Part shown: one piece after another, positions 9,245-19,345 of the stretch | How positions within the stretch are numbered: position 1 is the stretch's first letter | Layout of the letters: each line of letters starts with the position of its first letter | Source of the DNA: Promethearchaeota archaeon | GTDB taxonomy: Archaea > Asgardarchaeota > Lokiarchaeia > Sigyniarchaeales > SOKP01 | DNA length: 64,000 nt | Direction: 5' to 3' | NCBI GenBank assembly: GCA_019894975.1 | Contig: JAGXNO010000008.1 | Coordinates: 28,898 to 92,897, forward strand | Program-made: the position numbers and the translations under genes | The notes under the pieces: model-generated | The model's database searches: none | Told to the model about the DNA's origin: nothing | The model's input: the letters and a program-made list of their open reading frames with translations, nothing else

Positions 9245-10336
9245 ATGAACCGACTGATACTCCATTGTGATTTAGATTGCTTTTTTGCTGCTGTAGAGAT
9301 AAGAGACAATCCCCAATATCAAAAAAAACCAGTGATTATAGGAGCGGATCCAAAAAATGGAAAAGGGAGAGGGGTCGTATCGACATGTTCTTATGAAGCA
9401 AGAGAATTTGGTCTTCATTCTGGAATGCCGATATCTCAAGCGTATCTCAGGTGTCCTCATGGTATCTATTTAAGACCAAATATCGAAAAGTATCATAAAG
9501 CCTCGAAAGAAGTAATGGAAATATTAAATAGTTATTCAAATGATTTCCAACAAATAGGAAGTGATGAGGCATATTTGGAACTTACAGAGATATGTAGTGA
9601 TTATAAGGAAGCCAAGGAAATTGCATTCCAAATTCAGAAAGAGGTTATGGAGTGTGTACGATTGACAATATCAATTGGGATAGCCCCAACAAAATCTCTT
9701 GCAAAAATTGCATCGGATTGCAATAAACCAAATGGTGTAAGTGTTTTTGAACCAAATAATTTTAAAGAATTACTAAAAGATATGGATATCACCCGTGTTC
9801 CCGGTATTGGTAAAAAAACAAAGGTCTATTTCTATAAGAAAGGGATTAGAACGATTGGTGATATCCTTAATCTTACGTTAGCGAAGATGGTTTCCTTATT
9901 TGGGGAACATGGTAAATGGATCTGGAATGTAGTAAATGGTTTTGATAATCGAAAAGTCAAGGAATTTCACGAAGGAAGGAAGTCTATCAGTGCAGAAAGA
10001 ACTTTTTTTGAAGATACAGATGATTTCAATTCAATTTTATCAAAATTGGAGGATATTAATGAAAGGATTCATAAATCAATTATGAAAAATCATATAACAT
10101 ACAAAACTGTTTCATTGAAAATAAGATTTGAAGGCTATCAAACATATACTCGTGCGAAAACCCTCCCTTTTCATATTCAAAACAAGCAAAGAGTAATCGA
10201 AGTGATTTTAGATTTAATGAAAGAATTTACGAAAAATATGAAGAAAGTAAGGTTGGTTGGGATTAAATTATCCAATTTGGAGAGAAATGGTAAAATTCGA
10301 CAGACTGGAATTCTGAATTATGCATATATTACCTAA
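9245..10336 (+). CDS. dinB: DNA polymerase IV (Y family)
   Basis: HCDLDCFFAAVE, SYEAR, SDEAYL, AKIASD and PGIGKKT; C-terminal PIP-like QTGILNY. Confidence 0.95.
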   Translation: MNRLILHCDLDCFFAAVEIRDNPQYQKKPVIIGADPKNGKGRGVVSTCSYEAREFGLHSGMPISQAYLRCPHGIYLRPNIEKYHKASKEVMEILNSYSNDFQQIGSDEAYLELTEICSDYKEAKEIAFQIQKEVMECVRLTISIGIAPTKSLAKIASDCNKPNGVSVFEPNNFKELLKDMDITRVPGIGKKTKVYFYKKGIRTIGDILNLTLAKMVSLFGEHGKWIWNVVNGFDNRKVKEFHEGRKSISAERTFFEDTDDFNSILSKLEDINERIHKSIMKNHITYKTVSLKIRFEGYQTYTRAKTLPFHIQNKQRVIEVILDLMKEFTKNMKKVRLVGIKLSNLERNGKIRQTGILNYAYIT

Positions 10337-11261
10337 ATAATTCAGGTAAGTACTCTTTAATTTGTCTTAAGATCTCCTTGTGAAGCAGCCCATTAGAAGA
10401 AATAATCCCTGGTTTAGTGAAAATGCTTTTACTTTCTTTATATCTTAAAGGTGTACCATCTATATCGGTTACCTTACCTCCTGCTTCTCTGACAATTAAA
10501 TCTCCAGGTAAAAAGTCCCATGTAAACGAACGTTCCAAGTTTATCGGTTTTATATAAAGATCTGCTGTTCCATCAGCGACCATTGCAAATTTAACCATAC
10601 TATCAACTTGAATAAAATTAATTATCCCTATATTTCTTGCGAATTTTATTATCCAAGGTTTATCATAATGTAATGAATGACAGAAACGGAAATCATTTAA
10701 TTTGTTAATTTGACTTACTTTAGTTGGTATGAAATTATTGGTATCATAGGAAACGTGAGTACCATATCCTTGCTCAGCTGAAAAGATAGCTAATGATTTA
10801 CCGTGGTAGTTGGGGGTCGCAATTGCACACGCCTTGGGGACGGAGTTCACCATTAATCCTACACCTACAGCATAGAATAATCCTTTTTGAAAACCGATAG
10901 TTCCATCGATTGGATCTACAGTCCATTGTCGTTTCGATGATTTCCCACGATATTCAATGTAATCTTTTACGTTATTTATTCCCTCTATATTTAATTCATT
11001 GAAACATTGTTTAACAGAATTTTCTGCTTTTTTGCCAAAATAAGTCAAGTTTTCTTCTTCAGCGATTATCTGATCATCTGAAAAATGATTTTGTAACTCA
11101 GACACAATAAATATTTGAGAAGCAAAGTCAGCTAAAGTTACTGGAGACTGGTCAGCTTTTAAAAATGATTTGAATCCTTTGCTTCGAAACCATTCGGTAA
11201 TTTCAGTAGCTTTCTTTACTAGATTTACTGCTAAAGTTAATTCTTTGTTATACCTTGTCAT
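10329..11261 (-). CDS. inositol monophosphatase superfamily protein, HAL2/SAL1-like 3'(2'),5'-bisphosphate nucleotidase
   Basis: KxDxSPVTxADFxSQ, AEE, DPIDGT and WD...EAGGxVTD. Confidence 0.8.
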   Translation of the reverse strand: MTRYNKELTLAVNLVKKATEITEWFRSKGFKSFLKADQSPVTLADFASQIFIVSELQNHFSDDQIIAEEENLTYFGKKAENSVKQCFNELNIEGINNVKDYIEYRGKSSKRQWTVDPIDGTIGFQKGLFYAVGVGLMVNSVPKACAIATPNYHGKSLAIFSAEQGYGTHVSYDTNNFIPTKVSQINKLNDFRFCHSLHYDKPWIIKFARNIGIINFIQVDSMVKFAMVADGTADLYIKPINLERSFTWDFLPGDLIVREAGGKVTDIDGTPLRYKESKSIFTKPGIISSNGLLHKEILRQIKEYLPELFR

Positions 11262-11316: not shown

Positions 11317-13413
11317 TTACCTTAAAATCGCTTTTATTTCAAATAGATAATTATCTAAAGAGGCTGAAGCCTTGTTTGAAAGATCAAGCTGATTCACCTT
11401 CTTTTTTAATTCTGATTCGAAATTATATTGGTTTAGAAGCCATAATAATTTATGAATCTCGATTTTTTTCTTAAAGTCATTATCAATTTTAAAATGATTT
11501 GAATATGTATTATAAAATGCATCATTAAAAGAAGGTATGTTTAAAGGTTTTAAAATTAAATAATCAATTTTTATAAAATCTTGAGCTCTACTTCCAATAT
11601 ACCAATTATCGAAATCTACTAATCCGTTCAGATGAATTGCACCCTGATCCTCTTTTACAATAACATTTTGACTATGAAAATCATTGTGTAATACCACAAA
11701 TTCATTTTCTTCTTCAATCAATGCTTGATTATCGTTATAATAATCTCTTATTTCTTTCCCAAGATCAATTTTATACTTTTTAGCTTCCTGAATCTCATTT
11801 TCTAATTGATTATTAAAATATTCTGAATAGCTTTTCTTATTTTTTTCCCCAATTTGACTAATGTTTTTATAAAAAGATTTAAATTTAATATTGTGCAGAT
11901 TTCCTAAATGTTCACCTAGATTTTCAAAAATATTTATAAACTTTTTAGAATCCAAGTTCTTTCCTTCAGTGATATATTTATTTATGATTTGAAATAATGG
12001 TTTTCCTCGAATATACTCTTGTACTGAGAAAATATAGGGAATAATTTCTTTACTCTCATCATAGTAGATTAAATTGCTTACAGGCATAATTGGGGGTTTT
12101 TCTTTCTCAAAAATATATGATCCTGTTTTGGAACTAATTATCTCTTTTACTTTTTCTCTTAAATCTGGCTCATCAGGTAGTAGAGTTTTGTCTAAAAGAG
12201 GAAAGAGTAGTTTTTCTTTGACCAAATTTTCATATTGAAAGAATTTACTAGTTCGAAATCTGAATACTAATTGACTTTTTTCAAATTTAACCCTATATAT
12301 CGTGTTTACATCAGCAATATAAGGTCCCTTAATTTTCATAACTTTTCCTTGATGAACTAAAACATCAATTTTTGAAAAAATATCTATAATATCTTGAAAT
12401 TGGTAAAGGTCCTTTGTTCCTATATAATACAGTTGATAAATTTGTTTATTGTTAAGCAATGAATTAACAGTGGCTTCTATTCGTTCTTTACTTATTGTTT
12501 CAATTTCATTTTGAAGCGTAGTAGTGAGATTATTAACTTCTTCATTCGTTGTTGATATTAAATCTCTATATAAATGCAGAAACGCATATTTTAATCCACG
12601 TTTTTCTTGGTCTACTTCAGCTTTAATATCATAAATGTTAGTTCTGATATCGTTAATTTGTTCTTGCAATTGTAGAAGTTCTAAGAGATTATCTTCTAAC
12701 GCATAATAGTAGAGTTTTGAAAACATATTGACCAAGTTACTTATACTCGATACAATCCCACTATTTTTTCTTTGGTTCAAGGGGATAAGTTGAAAGAAAT
12801 TTTGAGAGTTTTCTTCGAGTCCACAGAAAACTGAAAAATTCTCGTTTAGTAACTCAAGATAAGATTTACACATCTTGATATTATAGAAAGAATCATTTAA
12901 ACCTCTTAAAGATGTGAATTCAGTTAATTTTTTTAACGAAGCAGGGTCAATCTCATTTCTAGCACTTTGAGGAGGATTATTATATAAATAGATCTTATTT
13001 TTAGGATTAATAGAGCCTAAAATGTTTTCAAAATATGAATTTATTTCATCTGCTGGAAGTTTTTCCAAAGCGGGAGGAGAAATCATGTAATTAAGATCTT
13101 CATATTTACGACCTAAACTTTCAATTTGGTTAATTACATCATTAGCAGAATCACCATGGATTCCGATAAGGACTGGAATTCTATTTTCAGAAAAATTCAA
13201 TGTTAAATCGATAAGTTTAGACATTTCTTCAAGATTATTTAAAAAAAGTCTCCCGTCCCCCATTCTACCAAACAGCAAGATTGCGTTGGCATCATTTGTT
13301 AAGATATGACGTATAAGAAGTGAATTTAAATTTTCTAAAATTTCACCATTCCTATTGAAAAAAGTTAAAGCATCACAGATAACCCCGTTGATTGGAGACA
13401 TTTTAAATTTCAC
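11317..13413 (-). CDS. fusion: degenerate DapA/DHDPS-family TIM barrel plus C-terminal APH/choline-kinase-like phosphotransferase; start may be the ATG at 13401
   Basis: N-terminal GVIxxxxTFF, RIPVLIG, LYNNP, GLNDS; C-terminal HNDFHSQN and VDFD. Confidence 0.75.
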   Translation of the reverse strand: MKFKMSPINGVICDALTFFNRNGEILENLNSLLIRHILTNDANAILLFGRMGDGRLFLNNLEEMSKLIDLTLNFSENRIPVLIGIHGDSANDVINQIESLGRKYEDLNYMISPPALEKLPADEINSYFENILGSINPKNKIYLYNNPPQSARNEIDPASLKKLTEFTSLRGLNDSFYNIKMCKSYLELLNENFSVFCGLEENSQNFFQLIPLNQRKNSGIVSSISNLVNMFSKLYYYALEDNLLELLQLQEQINDIRTNIYDIKAEVDQEKRGLKYAFLHLYRDLISTTNEEVNNLTTTLQNEIETISKERIEATVNSLLNNKQIYQLYYIGTKDLYQFQDIIDIFSKIDVLVHQGKVMKIKGPYIADVNTIYRVKFEKSQLVFRFRTSKFFQYENLVKEKLLFPLLDKTLLPDEPDLREKVKEIISSKTGSYIFEKEKPPIMPVSNLIYYDESKEIIPYIFSVQEYIRGKPLFQIINKYITEGKNLDSKKFINIFENLGEHLGNLHNIKFKSFYKNISQIGEKNKKSYSEYFNNQLENEIQEAKKYKIDLGKEIRDYYNDNQALIEEENEFVVLHNDFHSQNVIVKEDQGAIHLNGLVDFDNWYIGSRAQDFIKIDYLILKPLNIPSFNDAFYNTYSNHFKIDNDFKKKIEIHKLLWLLNQYNFESELKKKVNQLDLSNKASASLDNYLFEIKAILR

Positions 13414-13692: not shown

Positions 13693-15378
13693 CTAGATTT
13701 TCTTAGATTCTTTAAAAATTTCAAAAATGTCTTTTTCATAATCTATTGTGTCTTCTGGTAATAGGCTTGGATCTTTAACCAGTTTAGCCAAATAATAGAT
13801 TTTTGCCCCTCTTTCAAGGTATTGTAGAACTGTATAAGCGCCTTCTAAGTGGCTTCCGCAACATAAGTTACCGTGATTAGAGAGTAAAACTGCATTTCTT
13901 TCATCCAAGTCCTTTATGACGGTTTCTGCTAATTCTTCTGTGCCCGCTTCTTCATATTTTGCACATAATACTTCACCACCTATATAGGGAACTAATTCTT
14001 CCATTAACGGAGGGAGGGAGAGATTTAAGGTGCTAAGAACAGTGGAATAAATACTATGAGCATGTATAATCGCATTTATATCTTCTCGCTCCTTATACAC
14101 ACTTAAATGCATTTGCTTCTCTACTGAAGGATTTCTGTCACCATCAATAACTTTACCTCCCATATCAATGATAAGAATGTCTTCTGGTTTCATCTCAATG
14201 TAATTAACATTACTTGGTGTGATTAGCACATATTCAGAATCATCGTCTTTTACTCTGACACTTACATTCCCTGCAGAACCGATCACATGCTTGTCTTTTA
14301 ACAGAATTTTACAAAAATCGACTATTTTCTTTCTCAAATCATTAATATCTAGGTTGGAAATGACTTTTTTATCTGTTAAAACTTCGGGATTCATAATGTT
14401 TCTTGGTATCTTATTGTTTAACCACAATTTGATATCCTCTAAGAGCATTTGAGATTGACGTTCAATTACTTCTTTTGTATCACCCCCAATATGGGGTGAA
14501 ATGATGGTATTTGAGAATTTTAGAAATTTATTGTCCTCATCAATAGGTTCTAAGGGGAAGACATCTAAAGCTGCTCCTGCTATTTTTTTCTGTTCTAATG
14601 CTTTCTCTAACGCTTCATAATCAACTAAACTTCCCTTGGCAGTATTTATTAAATAAGCCGTCTTTTTCATTGATTCTAATCTTTTTTCATTGATAAGATT
14701 ATCATTCTCATCTGTGGCAGTAGCATGAATAGTTATAAAATCAGAATTTCGTACAAGAAAATCTATATCGACTATATCCCCATATTCATTTGCAACTGTT
14801 TTTGGTACGAAGGGATCGTAAATAAGGAATTTTACTCCAAAGGCTTTTAATCTTTTTGCTACTCTTATTCCAATTTGACCAAAACCAATAATCCCAACCG
14901 TTTTTCCTCCTAATTCAGTACCTTTAAATTGCACAAAATAATCTACCCAGTTTTCAAAATCTATAACTTCGAACTTTTCAGAATGAAGAATTCTTTCTAC
15001 TTCAGGGATTTTACGAGCAAGCATTAATATATAACAAACGGTTAAATCGGCGACAGCATCAACATTCCTAAAAGGTGTATTAAGGACAGGTAATCCTTTC
15101 TCTGTTGCAGCAATGAGGTTAACATTAAACGGATCTCCTCTGCATGAGATGAGTAATTTTATATTAGTTAACTCATAAAATTCCTTTTTTTTAACATCAT
15201 CAGTCTCCGTAATAAAAATATCTATACCTTCTAGTTTTTCTGCCAATTCTTTAGCATCAAAATATATTTCTCGAGTTTGAACCCATGGTTCATAAACAAC
15301 TTCCATTAATTTTCTTAATTCGTTTAGAACCTCGGGACTTAAACTTGCGGTTACCAAAGCCTTCATATTCATCATCAC
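13693..15378 (-). CDS. fusion: D-isomer-specific 2-hydroxyacid dehydrogenase plus class II aldolase
   Basis: GIIGFGQIG, INTAKG, ALDVFPLEP, SPHIGG, followed by GNVS, ITPS, PSVE, HAHS and NHG. Confidence 0.88.
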   Translation of the reverse strand: MMMNMKALVTASLSPEVLNELRKLMEVVYEPWVQTREIYFDAKELAEKLEGIDIFITETDDVKKKEFYELTNIKLLISCRGDPFNVNLIAATEKGLPVLNTPFRNVDAVADLTVCYILMLARKIPEVERILHSEKFEVIDFENWVDYFVQFKGTELGGKTVGIIGFGQIGIRVAKRLKAFGVKFLIYDPFVPKTVANEYGDIVDIDFLVRNSDFITIHATATDENDNLINEKRLESMKKTAYLINTAKGSLVDYEALEKALEQKKIAGAALDVFPLEPIDEDNKFLKFSNTIISPHIGGDTKEVIERQSQMLLEDIKLWLNNKIPRNIMNPEVLTDKKVISNLDINDLRKKIVDFCKILLKDKHVIGSAGNVSVRVKDDDSEYVLITPSNVNYIEMKPEDILIIDMGGKVIDGDRNPSVEKQMHLSVYKEREDINAIIHAHSIYSTVLSTLNLSLPPLMEELVPYIGGEVLCAKYEEAGTEELAETVIKDLDERNAVLLSNHGNLCCGSHLEGAYTVLQYLERGAKIYYLAKLVKDPSLLPEDTIDYEKDIFEIFKESKKI

Positions 15379-15410: not shown

Positions 15411-15761
15411 TTAGAAAAGTAAGCTCTTTAATTTTAGTAAGTTCCTTATTTTCCCTTCAACTACTTTTATTTGACCAGAGCTATATGCTTTCACAGCTCC
15501 AATTTCTTTATTAAACAATCCAATTAGGGTCTTTTCAGTAGTAAATTCTATTTTGACAGGTATATCTTTATTTCCAGAATTATTTTCTATTTTAATTCCT
15601 TTATCTCCATTTACCAAAATAATGAACGAATATCCACTATCCAAAAAGGTAACTTGGATTGGATCATTGTAATTTACTAATTTTCTTCTAACTTTTTCAG
15701 TATTATTATAACGATCTTCAATTTCTTTTAAACAACCTGCAATATCTTCGAATTTTGACAT
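15411..15761 (-). CDS. SCP2 sterol/lipid-binding domain protein
   Basis: 116 aa with C-terminal AVKAYSSGQIKVVEG...LLKL, typical of SCP2. Confidence 0.7.
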   Translation of the reverse strand: MSKFEDIAGCLKEIEDRYNNTEKVRRKLVNYNDPIQVTFLDSGYSFIILVNGDKGIKIENNSGNKDIPVKIEFTTEKTLIGLFNKEIGAVKAYSSGQIKVVEGKIRNLLKLKSLLF

Positions 15762-16243: not shown

Positions 16244-16732
16244 ATGAGTGGGGCAAAAGATTTTCGTTATTTAATACCTGAAAGTTTGTTTAAGGAAATA
16301 ACTCAAAAGGCGGCGGAAGAATATCCTCAAATTTGCCACGGCTGGTTATTTGCTGATAGAAAAGAAAATTTCGGAATCTGTACTCAATTCACCATGAATT
16401 CCGATTTACGCAGAACAAAAATACATGTAAAACCAAGAAGCTGGATGAGATATAAGAAATCTAAAATCTATAACATGCGGAAGTTTAAACAAGAGATGGC
16501 GACGGATATTGTATGGCAGTGGCACTCCCATCCTTCCGGTAGTGATAAGCTACACGCTATAGATAAGCGGATCTTAAAATATTTATCAAATGGAGTTATG
16601 ATAATCGTTGTACCAGAAGTACCAAATAGAGAACCAGAACAAAAAGCACATCTTGTCGGTTGGTATTATGACAAACGCTATACAAAGAAGCCTATCATTG
16701 AAAAAATGGTTTTCGAAATAATCTCCGAATAA
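16244..16732 (+). CDS. JAB/MPN (Mov34/JAMM) domain protein, divergent
   Basis: WHSHP-x10-D spacing (HSHPSGSDKLHAID) and an MPN-like N-terminus. Confidence 0.7.
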   Translation: MSGAKDFRYLIPESLFKEITQKAAEEYPQICHGWLFADRKENFGICTQFTMNSDLRRTKIHVKPRSWMRYKKSKIYNMRKFKQEMATDIVWQWHSHPSGSDKLHAIDKRILKYLSNGVMIIVVPEVPNREPEQKAHLVGWYYDKRYTKKPIIEKMVFEIISE

Positions 16733-18619: not shown

Positions 18620-19345
18620 ATGTTTCAGCAAGCAGGACGTGGATATGATATGGCTATCACGCAGTTTTCACCTGAAGGACGACTTTTTCAAGTTGAGTAT
18701 GCAATAGAAGCTGTTCGAAGAGGTACTACTGCTGTTGTATGTAGGAATAAAAATTCTGTAGTATTTGCGGTTGAGAAGAAAAGTTCTGAACTTCAAGAAA
18801 TTAGTATGAGTTCAGAAAAAATATTTAAGATTGATAACCATATTGGAGTTGCAATAGCCGGTCTAACCGCAGATGCACGTGTGTTGATTGATAGGGCTCG
18901 TATTCAAGCTCAGGTAAATTTATTGAATTATGATGAAAAAATCTCTGTAAAGGATAGCACTTTAAATATTTGTGAATATAAGCAAGTATTCACCCAGAAC
19001 GCAGGTGTGAGACCTTTCGGCGTCTCTTTTCTAGTTGCTGGAATTGATTCGAATGGCCCCTCCTTGTTTCTAACCGATCCTAGTGGTGCATTTTGGGCTT
19101 ATAAAGCCTTCGCAATAGGATCTGGTGCCACTGAAGCAAGGGCTTACCTTGAAGAACATTATAAAGAAGATATGAGTGATGAGGAATTAAAATTATTACC
19201 CTTACGAGCTCTCAAGGAGATAATGGGTGATAATCTAAATAAAGACACATGTGATATAGCTTTTATATTGAAAGAAGATAAAACGTTTAAACTTCTAAGT
19301 TTAGATGAAGAGGAAGAGTTGTTAAATAAATTAGCAACTTCCTAA
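18620..19345 (+). CDS. psmA: proteasome subunit alpha
   Basis: GYDxAITxFSPEGRLFQVEYA, RPFGVS and TDPSG. Confidence 0.97.
   Translation: MFQQAGRGYDMAITQFSPEGRLFQVEYAIEAVRRGTTAVVCRNKNSVVFAVEKKSSELQEISMSSEKIFKIDNHIGVAIAGLTADARVLIDRARIQAQVNLLNYDEKISVKDSTLNICEYKQVFTQNAGVRPFGVSFLVAGIDSNGPSLFLTDPSGAFWAYKAFAIGSGATEARAYLEEHYKEDMSDEELKLLPLRALKEIMGDNLNKDTCDIAFILKEDKTFKLLSLDEEEELLNKLATS

Follow-up and report, generated by a model that had tools for sequence, protein, structure and literature searches.

The aldolases of the DHDPS/NAL/KD(P)G superfamily, such as C. glutamicum NAL (5c54), P. torridus KDG aldolase (4uxd), E. coli YagE (2v8z) and DapA (1dhp), share a TIM barrel followed by C-terminal helices, and the kinases of the APH fold, including APH(2'')-IVa/Id (3sgc and 4n57), APH(2'')-IIIa (3tdw), APH(4)-Ia (3tyk), the putative kinase 3dxp and FN3K (9cxo), share a bilobal architecture. 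In archaea, the semi-phosphorylative Entner-Doudoroff pathway employs a KDG kinase and a KD(P)G aldolase, which are encoded by the kdgK-kdgA operon of Sulfolobus and Thermoproteus. Those KDG kinases belong to the PfkB/ribokinase family and not to the APH fold, and both proteins are unfused, catalytically intact enzymes. Here we describe a single open reading frame (ORF) which joins a DHDPS-type barrel to an APH-fold kinase and is located at 11317-13413 on the minus strand of a stretch of 64,000 nucleotides from a Promethearchaeota archaeon of the Lokiarchaeia (Sigyniarchaeales; assembly GCA_019894975.1, contig JAGXNO010000008.1, positions 28,898 to 92,897). The whole stretch is called the window below, and all coordinates of this ORF refer to the minus strand. 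The N-terminal half shows the same barrel and helices as the described aldolases (Foldseek E 4e-15, TM 0.84) and keeps the tyrosine of YNxP, the G-x-x-D-S strand and the barrel glycines, but unlike them it has Asn for the catalytic Lys, Met for the loop Thr and a kinase fused behind it, and its identity to the solved members is only about 16-20%. The C-terminal half has the bilobal fold of the APH kinases, and its HxDxxxxN motif, present as HND, and its D-F motif align residue for residue with those of APH(2''); it differs from the APH kinases by an Arg in place of the beta-3 Lys, an N-terminal extension and a long insertion at residues 410-470. We consider it roughly 55% probable that the window protein combines a non-catalytic barrel, which would serve for ligand binding and/or as an oligomer scaffold, with a working small-molecule kinase.

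The barrel half was matched by the Pfam model DHDPS (PF00701) over residues 9-260 with an E-value of 4.5e-19 and 68.7 bits against a cut-off of 22.1, and the barrel with its C-terminal helices spans residues 8-285 (12559-13392) according to Pfam, Foldseek and the AlphaFold model. The Schiff-base lysine, which belongs to the motif G-x-K-[DE]-[ST] at the end of strand 6, is absent from this barrel. The motif reads GLNDS (residues 171-175) for GIKDS, and Asn173, whose codon lies at 12895-12897, was aligned by HMMER onto the Schiff-base Lys of the KDG aldolase 4uxd (GvKDS), the DHDPS 4xky (GfKDS) and YagE 3n2x (GIKDT). The carboxylate-binding loop G-[ST]-T-G-E, which is GSTGE or GTTGE in the intact relatives, is degenerate and reads GRMGD (residues 49-53, 13255-13269), with Thr51 replaced by Met. 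The catalytic Tyr144 is kept in YNNP (residues 144-147, 12973-12984), a position occupied by Y, I, H, N or L in the lysine-less relatives. Specific family models did not claim this half: the DapA model TIGR00674 of NCBIfam scored 65.8 bits against an equivalog cut-off of 206.15, and the KdgD, NanA, HpaI and Arch_KDGaldase models were all far below their cut-offs. In the profile search with the barrel family, the first matches were the sugar-acid aldolases YagE and Picrophilus KDG aldolase, and the top Foldseek matches of the N-terminal half were C. glutamicum NAL (5c55 and 5c54), DHDPS and the Picrophilus KDG aldolase 4uxd, with TM to the target of 0.77-0.85 and a probability of 1.00. The full-length AlphaFold model (pLDDT 83.9, pTM 0.62) contains an eight-stranded barrel and a bilobal kinase, connected by a helical linker that is modelled with lower confidence; the pLDDT of the barrel is mostly 85-93, and Asn173 is placed at the C-terminal end of the barrel strand 169-174.

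Among 100 close homologues, position 173 is N in 73, I in 17, K in 5 and another residue in the remaining 5. The earlier note on this DNA, made from the letters alone, had raised the conservation of the K-to-N change in orthologues as a question, and the answer is divided, since the residue is mostly N but some orthologues keep the Lys. The residues P14, F19, T51, Y144, K173, S176, P222, G268, Q271 and R272 are conserved in sequences with the lysine and are variable or replaced in those without it. A new conserved motif, DSFYNI(K), has arisen past the lost lysine, with Asn178 in 96%, Phe176 in 85% and Lys180 in 81% of the sequences. The barrel is supported as a true pseudo-aldolase, which is predicted to be incapable of Schiff-base chemistry because Lys173 has been changed to Asn and Thr51 to Met, and the tyrosine has also been lost in many relatives. 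The pseudo-enzyme reading of this domain in the earlier note is supported by these losses of Lys and, in relatives, of Tyr and Thr, and by the fact that no new conserved Lys has appeared. The note's further idea, a ligand-sensing or oligomerisation domain that controls the kinase, is a hypothesis.

The kinase half, by comparison with its described relatives, carries every canonical catalytic residue. The domain occupies residues 356-698 (11320-12348) as delimited by Pfam, the domain model and the fold search, and Pfam APH (PF01636) matched residues 440-615 with an E-value of 1.7e-12 and 48.1 bits against a cut-off of 23.2. The catalytic loop HNDFHSQN (residues 576-583, 11665-11688) contains Asp578 as catalytic base and Asn583 as metal ligand, and DFD (residues 600-602, 11608-11616) contains Asp600, which was aligned to the Mg-binding Asp of APH(2'')-Id. 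In the profile alignment, HNDFHSQN and VDFD pair with HNDFSSDH and IDFG of that enzyme, and both the H-x-D-x-x-x-x-N motif and the Mg-binding Asp are present. The motif FRFR (residues 384-387, 12253-12264) puts Arg385 at the beta-3 spot usually taken by the ATP-binding Lys; this position is R or K in all of the 149 family sequences, and an invariant K-E-K at residues 399-401 stands where the helix-C Glu is expected. The kinase invariants of the fusion family are FRxR, KEK, HN(D) and DFDNW. The domain modelled alone reached a pLDDT of 89.3 and a pTM of 0.88. In this respect the earlier note was accurate: its DHDPS/NAL barrel with the Tyr of YNxP, its GLNDS and GRMGD, and its APH-type kinase with intact HNDFHSQN and DFD motifs were all recovered by the family matches and alignments described above.

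The kinase half could not be assigned to a subfamily. VIA-align gave Z values of 18-20 to APH(2''), APH(4), APH(9), FN3K and other small-molecule kinases, at 10-18% identity over 265-316 residues, and a specific assignment was rejected because these values are tied across many families. An aminoglycoside-resistance enzyme was also rejected, as all NCBIfam models of aminoglycoside kinases scored far below their cut-offs, the best being APH_3p_I with 14.8 bits against 400. The fructosamine-3-kinase model PF03881 reached 21.7 bits, below its gathering cut-off of 22.4; PF03881 is precomputed on some homologues, and a distant relation to fructosamine-3-kinase is possible on this ground. No match to MtnK or choline kinase was obtained at E <= 1 in Pfam and NCBIfam, and neither family was among the top structural matches, although these lists do not exclude either of them. 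The single-sequence PDB search with the kinase half found nothing, the profile search returned weak APH(2'') matches only, and the ESM Atlas search returned generic APH clusters only. A C-terminal piece related to the C-lobe of the fusion kinase was also observed in a 792-residue ORF of a Promethearchaeota metagenome-assembled genome (MAG; L055, 6027-8405, plus strand), where it follows a Peptidase_C25 (gingipain-type) domain.

The two domains are connected by a linker of helices and short strands (residues 286-355, 12349-12558; pLDDT 57-89), and the gene boundary of the split relatives described below maps to this linker. The ORF comprises 698 codons from a GTG, with its stop at 11317-11319, and the G+C content is about 31% across the window. 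The ATG at 13399-13401, which gives 694 residues, is probably the true start instead of the GTG, because the homologues have 692-694 residues and residue 5 is the first one in the ESM Atlas record. A search of 5.8 billion clustered proteins gave a list of 120 homologues at 49-96% identity. Their length is about 690 residues in nearly every case, and nearly every one has precomputed Pfam matches to both DHDPS and APH; the architecture that the earlier note had read from one ORF is real. The same continuous ORF was found on more than 100 contigs in NCBI, JGI, ENA and Logan assemblies of Asgard MAGs, and all 20 full-length loci in GTDB genomes are free of internal stops. Among the 201 GTDB species genomes of the phylum, the full-length fusion is confined to the window's own Lokiarchaeial family, where it is present in all 10 other genomes of the window's genus and in some genomes of three further genera, and only weak DHDPS matches were found outside this family. 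The labels Hod-, Hermod-, Thor- and Odinarchaeota on MAGs with close homologues are probably loose naming, since the full-length GTDB matches sit only in the family itself.

When 1.84 billion cluster representatives were searched exhaustively with HMMER, three kinds of relatives were revealed, namely distant fused forms (P0122, P0123 and P0124), barrel-only proteins of 324-325 residues (P0128, P0129 and P0134) and kinase-only proteins of 385-404 residues. Scans of genome and metagenome contigs yielded nine split loci (L049-L052, L056 and L081-L084) in which the aldolase gene comes first and the kinase gene second, and the two genes overlap or sit no more than 18 nt apart. These loci include a Sigynarchaeum MAG and a MAG labelled Bathyarchaeota, and one locus also has an Arf-like GTPase; for the Sigynarchaeum aldolase, the top NCBIfam match was Arch_KDGaldase, below its cut-off. 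All split pairs are intact at both sites, with GSTGE or GTTGE, YNNP and G-x-K-D-S in the aldolase and FRxR, HND, N and IDFDN in the kinase, and the basal fused forms P0122 and P0124 also keep both catalytic sets. Functionally, the ancestral split pair may be compared best with the kdgK-kdgA operon, in which a DHDPS-family sugar-acid aldolase is encoded beside a kinase that uses the same sugar acid as its substrate. Two neighbours of one split locus (L056), a BNR_2 sialidase-like gene immediately upstream and a gene for a GH2 beta-galactosidase downstream, are a single hint at glycan or sugar-acid catabolism.

A FastTree tree of 149 non-redundant sequences was rooted on the split pairs, and the residue changes were counted by parsimony, which placed Lys at the root. 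The Schiff-base Lys173 is present in 22 sequences and lost in 126 with a minimum of 3 changes. The catalytic Tyr144 is present in 68 and lost in 81 (at least 12 changes), and Thr51 of the carboxylate loop is present in 67 and lost in 77 (at least 14 changes). The kinase site was not spared: the catalytic base Asp578 is present in 138 and lost in 11 (at least 4 changes), and the Mg-binding Asp600 is present in 125 and lost in 24 (at least 10 changes). Depending on the lineage, the lysine was replaced by N, I, V, M, F, S, T or D. In 97 of the 127 lysine-less sequences, including that of the window, Asp578, Asn583 and Asp600 are all kept. A sister clade (L033-L035 and P0123) shows the reverse pattern, in which Lys, Tyr and GTTGE are kept and the kinase reads INFD or LNFE with a degenerate beta-3 motif. 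As reconstructed on this tree, the order of events is shown to be a gene pair, then the fusion and then the loss of the aldolase site, because the split pairs and the basal fusions are intact and Lys is parsimonious at the root. The earlier note had connected lysine-keeping orthologues or a two-gene arrangement with a fusion artefact; relatives of both kinds do exist, but the artefact does not follow from them, and they point instead to this history of pair, fusion and site loss.

The ratio of nonsynonymous to synonymous substitution rates (dN/dS) was calculated by the simple Nei-Gojobori method for eight pairs, seven of them lysine-less, with dS near saturation in the more distant pairs. It was 0.10-0.24 in the barrel and 0.07-0.24 in the kinase, and the window compared with a 91%-identical metagenome copy gave 0.10 and 0.14, respectively. 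When the members of the lysine-less clade are compared pairwise, their identity averages 0.60 in the barrel and 0.615 in the kinase. Our results show that both halves are under purifying selection, the dead barrel like the kinase.

On the basis of these results, the protein can be explained by the following course of events. The ancestor would have been a translationally coupled gene pair of Asgard archaea, encoding a pyruvate-type class I (Schiff-base) aldolase and then an APH-fold small-molecule kinase, which probably catalysed two successive reactions of a sugar-acid or amino-sugar-like metabolite. The pair would have fused into a gene made as one polypeptide, and the aldolase site would have been dismantled after the fusion in the window's Lokiarchaeial family. 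The remaining role of the barrel would be non-catalytic, most likely the non-covalent holding of the ancestral ligand and/or a DHDPS-type oligomer scaffold, since its site is dead and yet purifying selection acts on it just as on the kinase. The C-terminal domain would phosphorylate a small hydroxylated metabolite. Ligand binding or scaffolding by the barrel, the activity of the kinase and the class of its substrate are what we infer here.

Several observations weigh against this explanation. The beta-3 residue of the window kinase is Arg and not Lys. Asp578 and/or Asp600 are absent in 30 of the 127 lysine-less sequences, and even within the same genus two genomes have a damaged kinase site, reading HNN in one (G195) and VGFNN in the other (G156). 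Judged by these alignments, an intact kinase under a dead barrel is not a constant of the family, because close relatives have repeatedly lost kinase catalytic residues. The pair of G156 and G195 has dN/dS of 0.14 in the barrel and 0.13 in the kinase, and because the ratio is low in the pairs including this one, the protein is, by this measure, maintained irrespective of its catalytic residues; phosphotransfer may not be the selected function, since the kinase half stays at 0.13 despite the HNN and VGFNN sites. In a sister genus, two genomes that are 100% complete have also lost the gene by clean excision from its syntenic position, at about 7054-7110 of L090 (G071:C10) and about 7679-7734 of L091 (G113:C16), and about 55 nt remain there between an IMPase-like gene and a dehydrogenase-aldolase gene. 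The fusion was not found in the GTDB genomes of genera g2, g3 and g5 of its own family. Because of the clean deletions in these complete genomes and its absence from several genera of the family, the fusion gene is dispensable. Furthermore, no conserved functional partner gene was found in the neighbourhoods of the fused and split loci.

The strongest alternative, which we regard as possible but on balance unlikely, is a double pseudoenzyme or regulator in which neither chemistry is selected, the barrel binding a metabolite and the kinase-like half, in the manner of a pseudokinase, a nucleotide, so that the protein would act as a sensor, scaffold or allosteric partner and the intact kinase motifs of the window would simply not have been lost yet. 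The repeated losses of kinase Asp residues in the lysine-less clade (at least 4 losses of Asp578, affecting 11 sequences, and at least 10 of Asp600, affecting 24), the sister clade with the reverse pattern and the purifying selection on both halves of G156 and G195 are in favour of this explanation, and Arg385, Asn577, Asn583 (with one exception), Phe601 and Trp604 are invariant even where the Asp residues are gone. On the other hand, the joint retention of Asp578, Asn583 and Asp600 in about three quarters of the lysine-less sequences would be unexpected at such divergence if catalysis were irrelevant, and Asp602, which is usually kept where Asp600 has become Gly, might substitute for it. A more specific proposal, tentative and rather doubtful at present, is a metabolite- and nucleotide-sensing regulator derived from two former enzymes, in which the barrel would still bind its former keto-acid or sugar-acid ligand and the kinase-like half ATP or GTP, and the signal would be given by conformation or oligomer state and not by catalysis. 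If true, it would explain why purifying selection continues over the entire 690-residue protein although either site or both can be lost, and it would be an archaeal case of the reciprocal, lineage-by-lineage 'pseudoenzymisation' of a bifunctional enzyme.

It is improbable that the barrel is still an enzyme, working through a relocated lysine or by chemistry free of a Schiff base, for example on the product of the kinase. Such an activity would agree with a conservation equal to that of the kinase half, with the new DSFYNI(K) motif after the lost lysine and with the invariant or nearly invariant NNP, Asp174, Gly171, Gly198/Glu200 and Asn226. However, as judged by conservation, the lysine-less clade has gained no conserved Lys of its own at any barrel position. 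Lys180 has given way to Arg or Asn in 16% of the sequences, and Lys233 and Lys275 date from the ancestor and occur side by side with Lys173 in the intact enzymes. Moreover, variation is seen at the catalytic Tyr, at the carboxylate-loop Thr and at Arg272, and the residues that replace the lysine across lineages are chemically unlike each other. We consider it still more improbable that the protein is a decaying relic without present function, both activities fading toward gene loss. The degeneration of both active sites in different lineages, the clean deletions in G071 and G113 and the failure to find the gene in the three genera would fit a relic, but none of the examined full-length loci has an interrupted reading frame, the 20 loci of the GTDB genomes being free of stops, dN/dS is 0.07-0.24 over the two halves, and the gene has been retained since before the genus-level splits, down to 45-50% identity. 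Finally, an assembly or gene-calling artefact fusing two genes, which would draw on the two-gene state of the distant relatives and on one 'stand-alone kinase' cluster representative (P0127), is counted as refuted by the identical ORF on more than 100 contigs from separate sources and the 20 GTDB genomes without internal stops, and P0127 itself stems from a run of N in its contig. For this genome, a non-catalytic barrel joined to a working kinase is the most economical reading.

The fusion gene lies in a syntenic block composed of SCP2-like, HADH plus class II aldolase, fusion, IMPase-like, Dpo4, class II aldolase and xylose-isomerase-like TIM genes, with a quinolinate phosphoribosyltransferase gene (QRPT) as a further member. 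Upstream in the window, on the same strand, are a gene for a 561-residue D-2-hydroxyacid dehydrogenase plus class II aldolase (13693-15378), whose best matches are fuculose-phosphate aldolase and PGDH/glyoxylate reductase, and, preceding it, a 116-residue ORF without Pfam match (15411-15761); these two stay together beside the IMPase-like gene where the fusion has been deleted. The gene of the IMPase family (10329-11261, minus strand) follows the fusion by 55 nt, and its best NCBIfam match is the HAL2/CysQ-type 3'(2'),5'-bisphosphate nucleotidase (E 2e-44, below the cut-off). Orthologues of this gene are present in genomes of the family without the fusion, and an obligatory partnership was rejected because the gene persists where the fusion is deleted. 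The inserts between the two genes are heterogeneous and include longin, metallophosphoesterase, B12-binding, URO-D-like and glyoxalase genes. A functional linkage to the neighbours was rejected as well, because the order, which recurs throughout the family, is kept only as part of a general synteny that includes Dpo4 and QRPT. A small convergent ORF of 117-137 residues was observed directly after the fusion in L028, L031, L034-L038, L040 and L045-L047 and is not present in the window's genus; the one in L028 (11059-11472, minus strand) matches the longin domain Fuz_longin_1 with an E-value of 9e-7.

Six of the split pairs (L050, L051, L052, L081, L082 and L084) are located beside genes for CxxCxxCC proteins, JAB-domain proteins and proteasome subunits, and in the window a JAB gene and the proteasome alpha gene (16244-16732 and 18620-19345) lie no more than a few kb from the fusion. 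Since JAB and proteasome genes are near the split pairs and the window fusion alike, the position beside the proteasome-exosome region may be old. As a metabolic clue, this neighbourhood was rejected, because it tells nothing on metabolism. The only other DHDPS-family gene of the genome (L089, G000 contig C156, 1494-2996, minus strand) encodes a 500-residue fusion of DHDPS (Pfam E 1e-76) and the formaldehyde-activating enzyme domain Fae (E 4e-56), and open frames of 466-518 residues that share this DHDPS match recur in many genomes across the phylum.

Pseudoenzyme domains that are retained beside active ones, such as pseudokinases and other 'dead' paralogues, are the subject of the reviews PMC10211241 and PMC7586955. 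The barrel of the window protein resembles them in the loss of catalytic residues from a fold that stays under purifying selection and in a role that is presumably binding, allostery or scaffolding. It differs from them in that the part which died is a class I aldolase barrel, that the 'live' kinase has lost its own site sporadically in this family and that one sister clade has the opposite pattern, an intact aldolase with a degenerate kinase. Each of the two folds is known from textbook enzymes, but their combination and its history are undescribed: full-text literature searching found no publication on the DHDPS+APH architecture, and the public records label the fusion only as 'dihydrodipicolinate synthase family protein'. 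The practical value of the protein is limited until a ligand or substrate is found. As a natural series, the living genomes contain split intact pairs, fused intact proteins, dead aldolases, dead kinases, proteins with both sites dead and deletions, which makes this family suitable for the study of how bifunctional enzymes become pseudoenzymes. For the Asgard archaea, the closest prokaryotic relatives of eukaryotes, a 'DapA' label on these fusion genes would, in metabolic reconstructions, miscredit the organisms with lysine-pathway or sugar-acid aldolase capacity.

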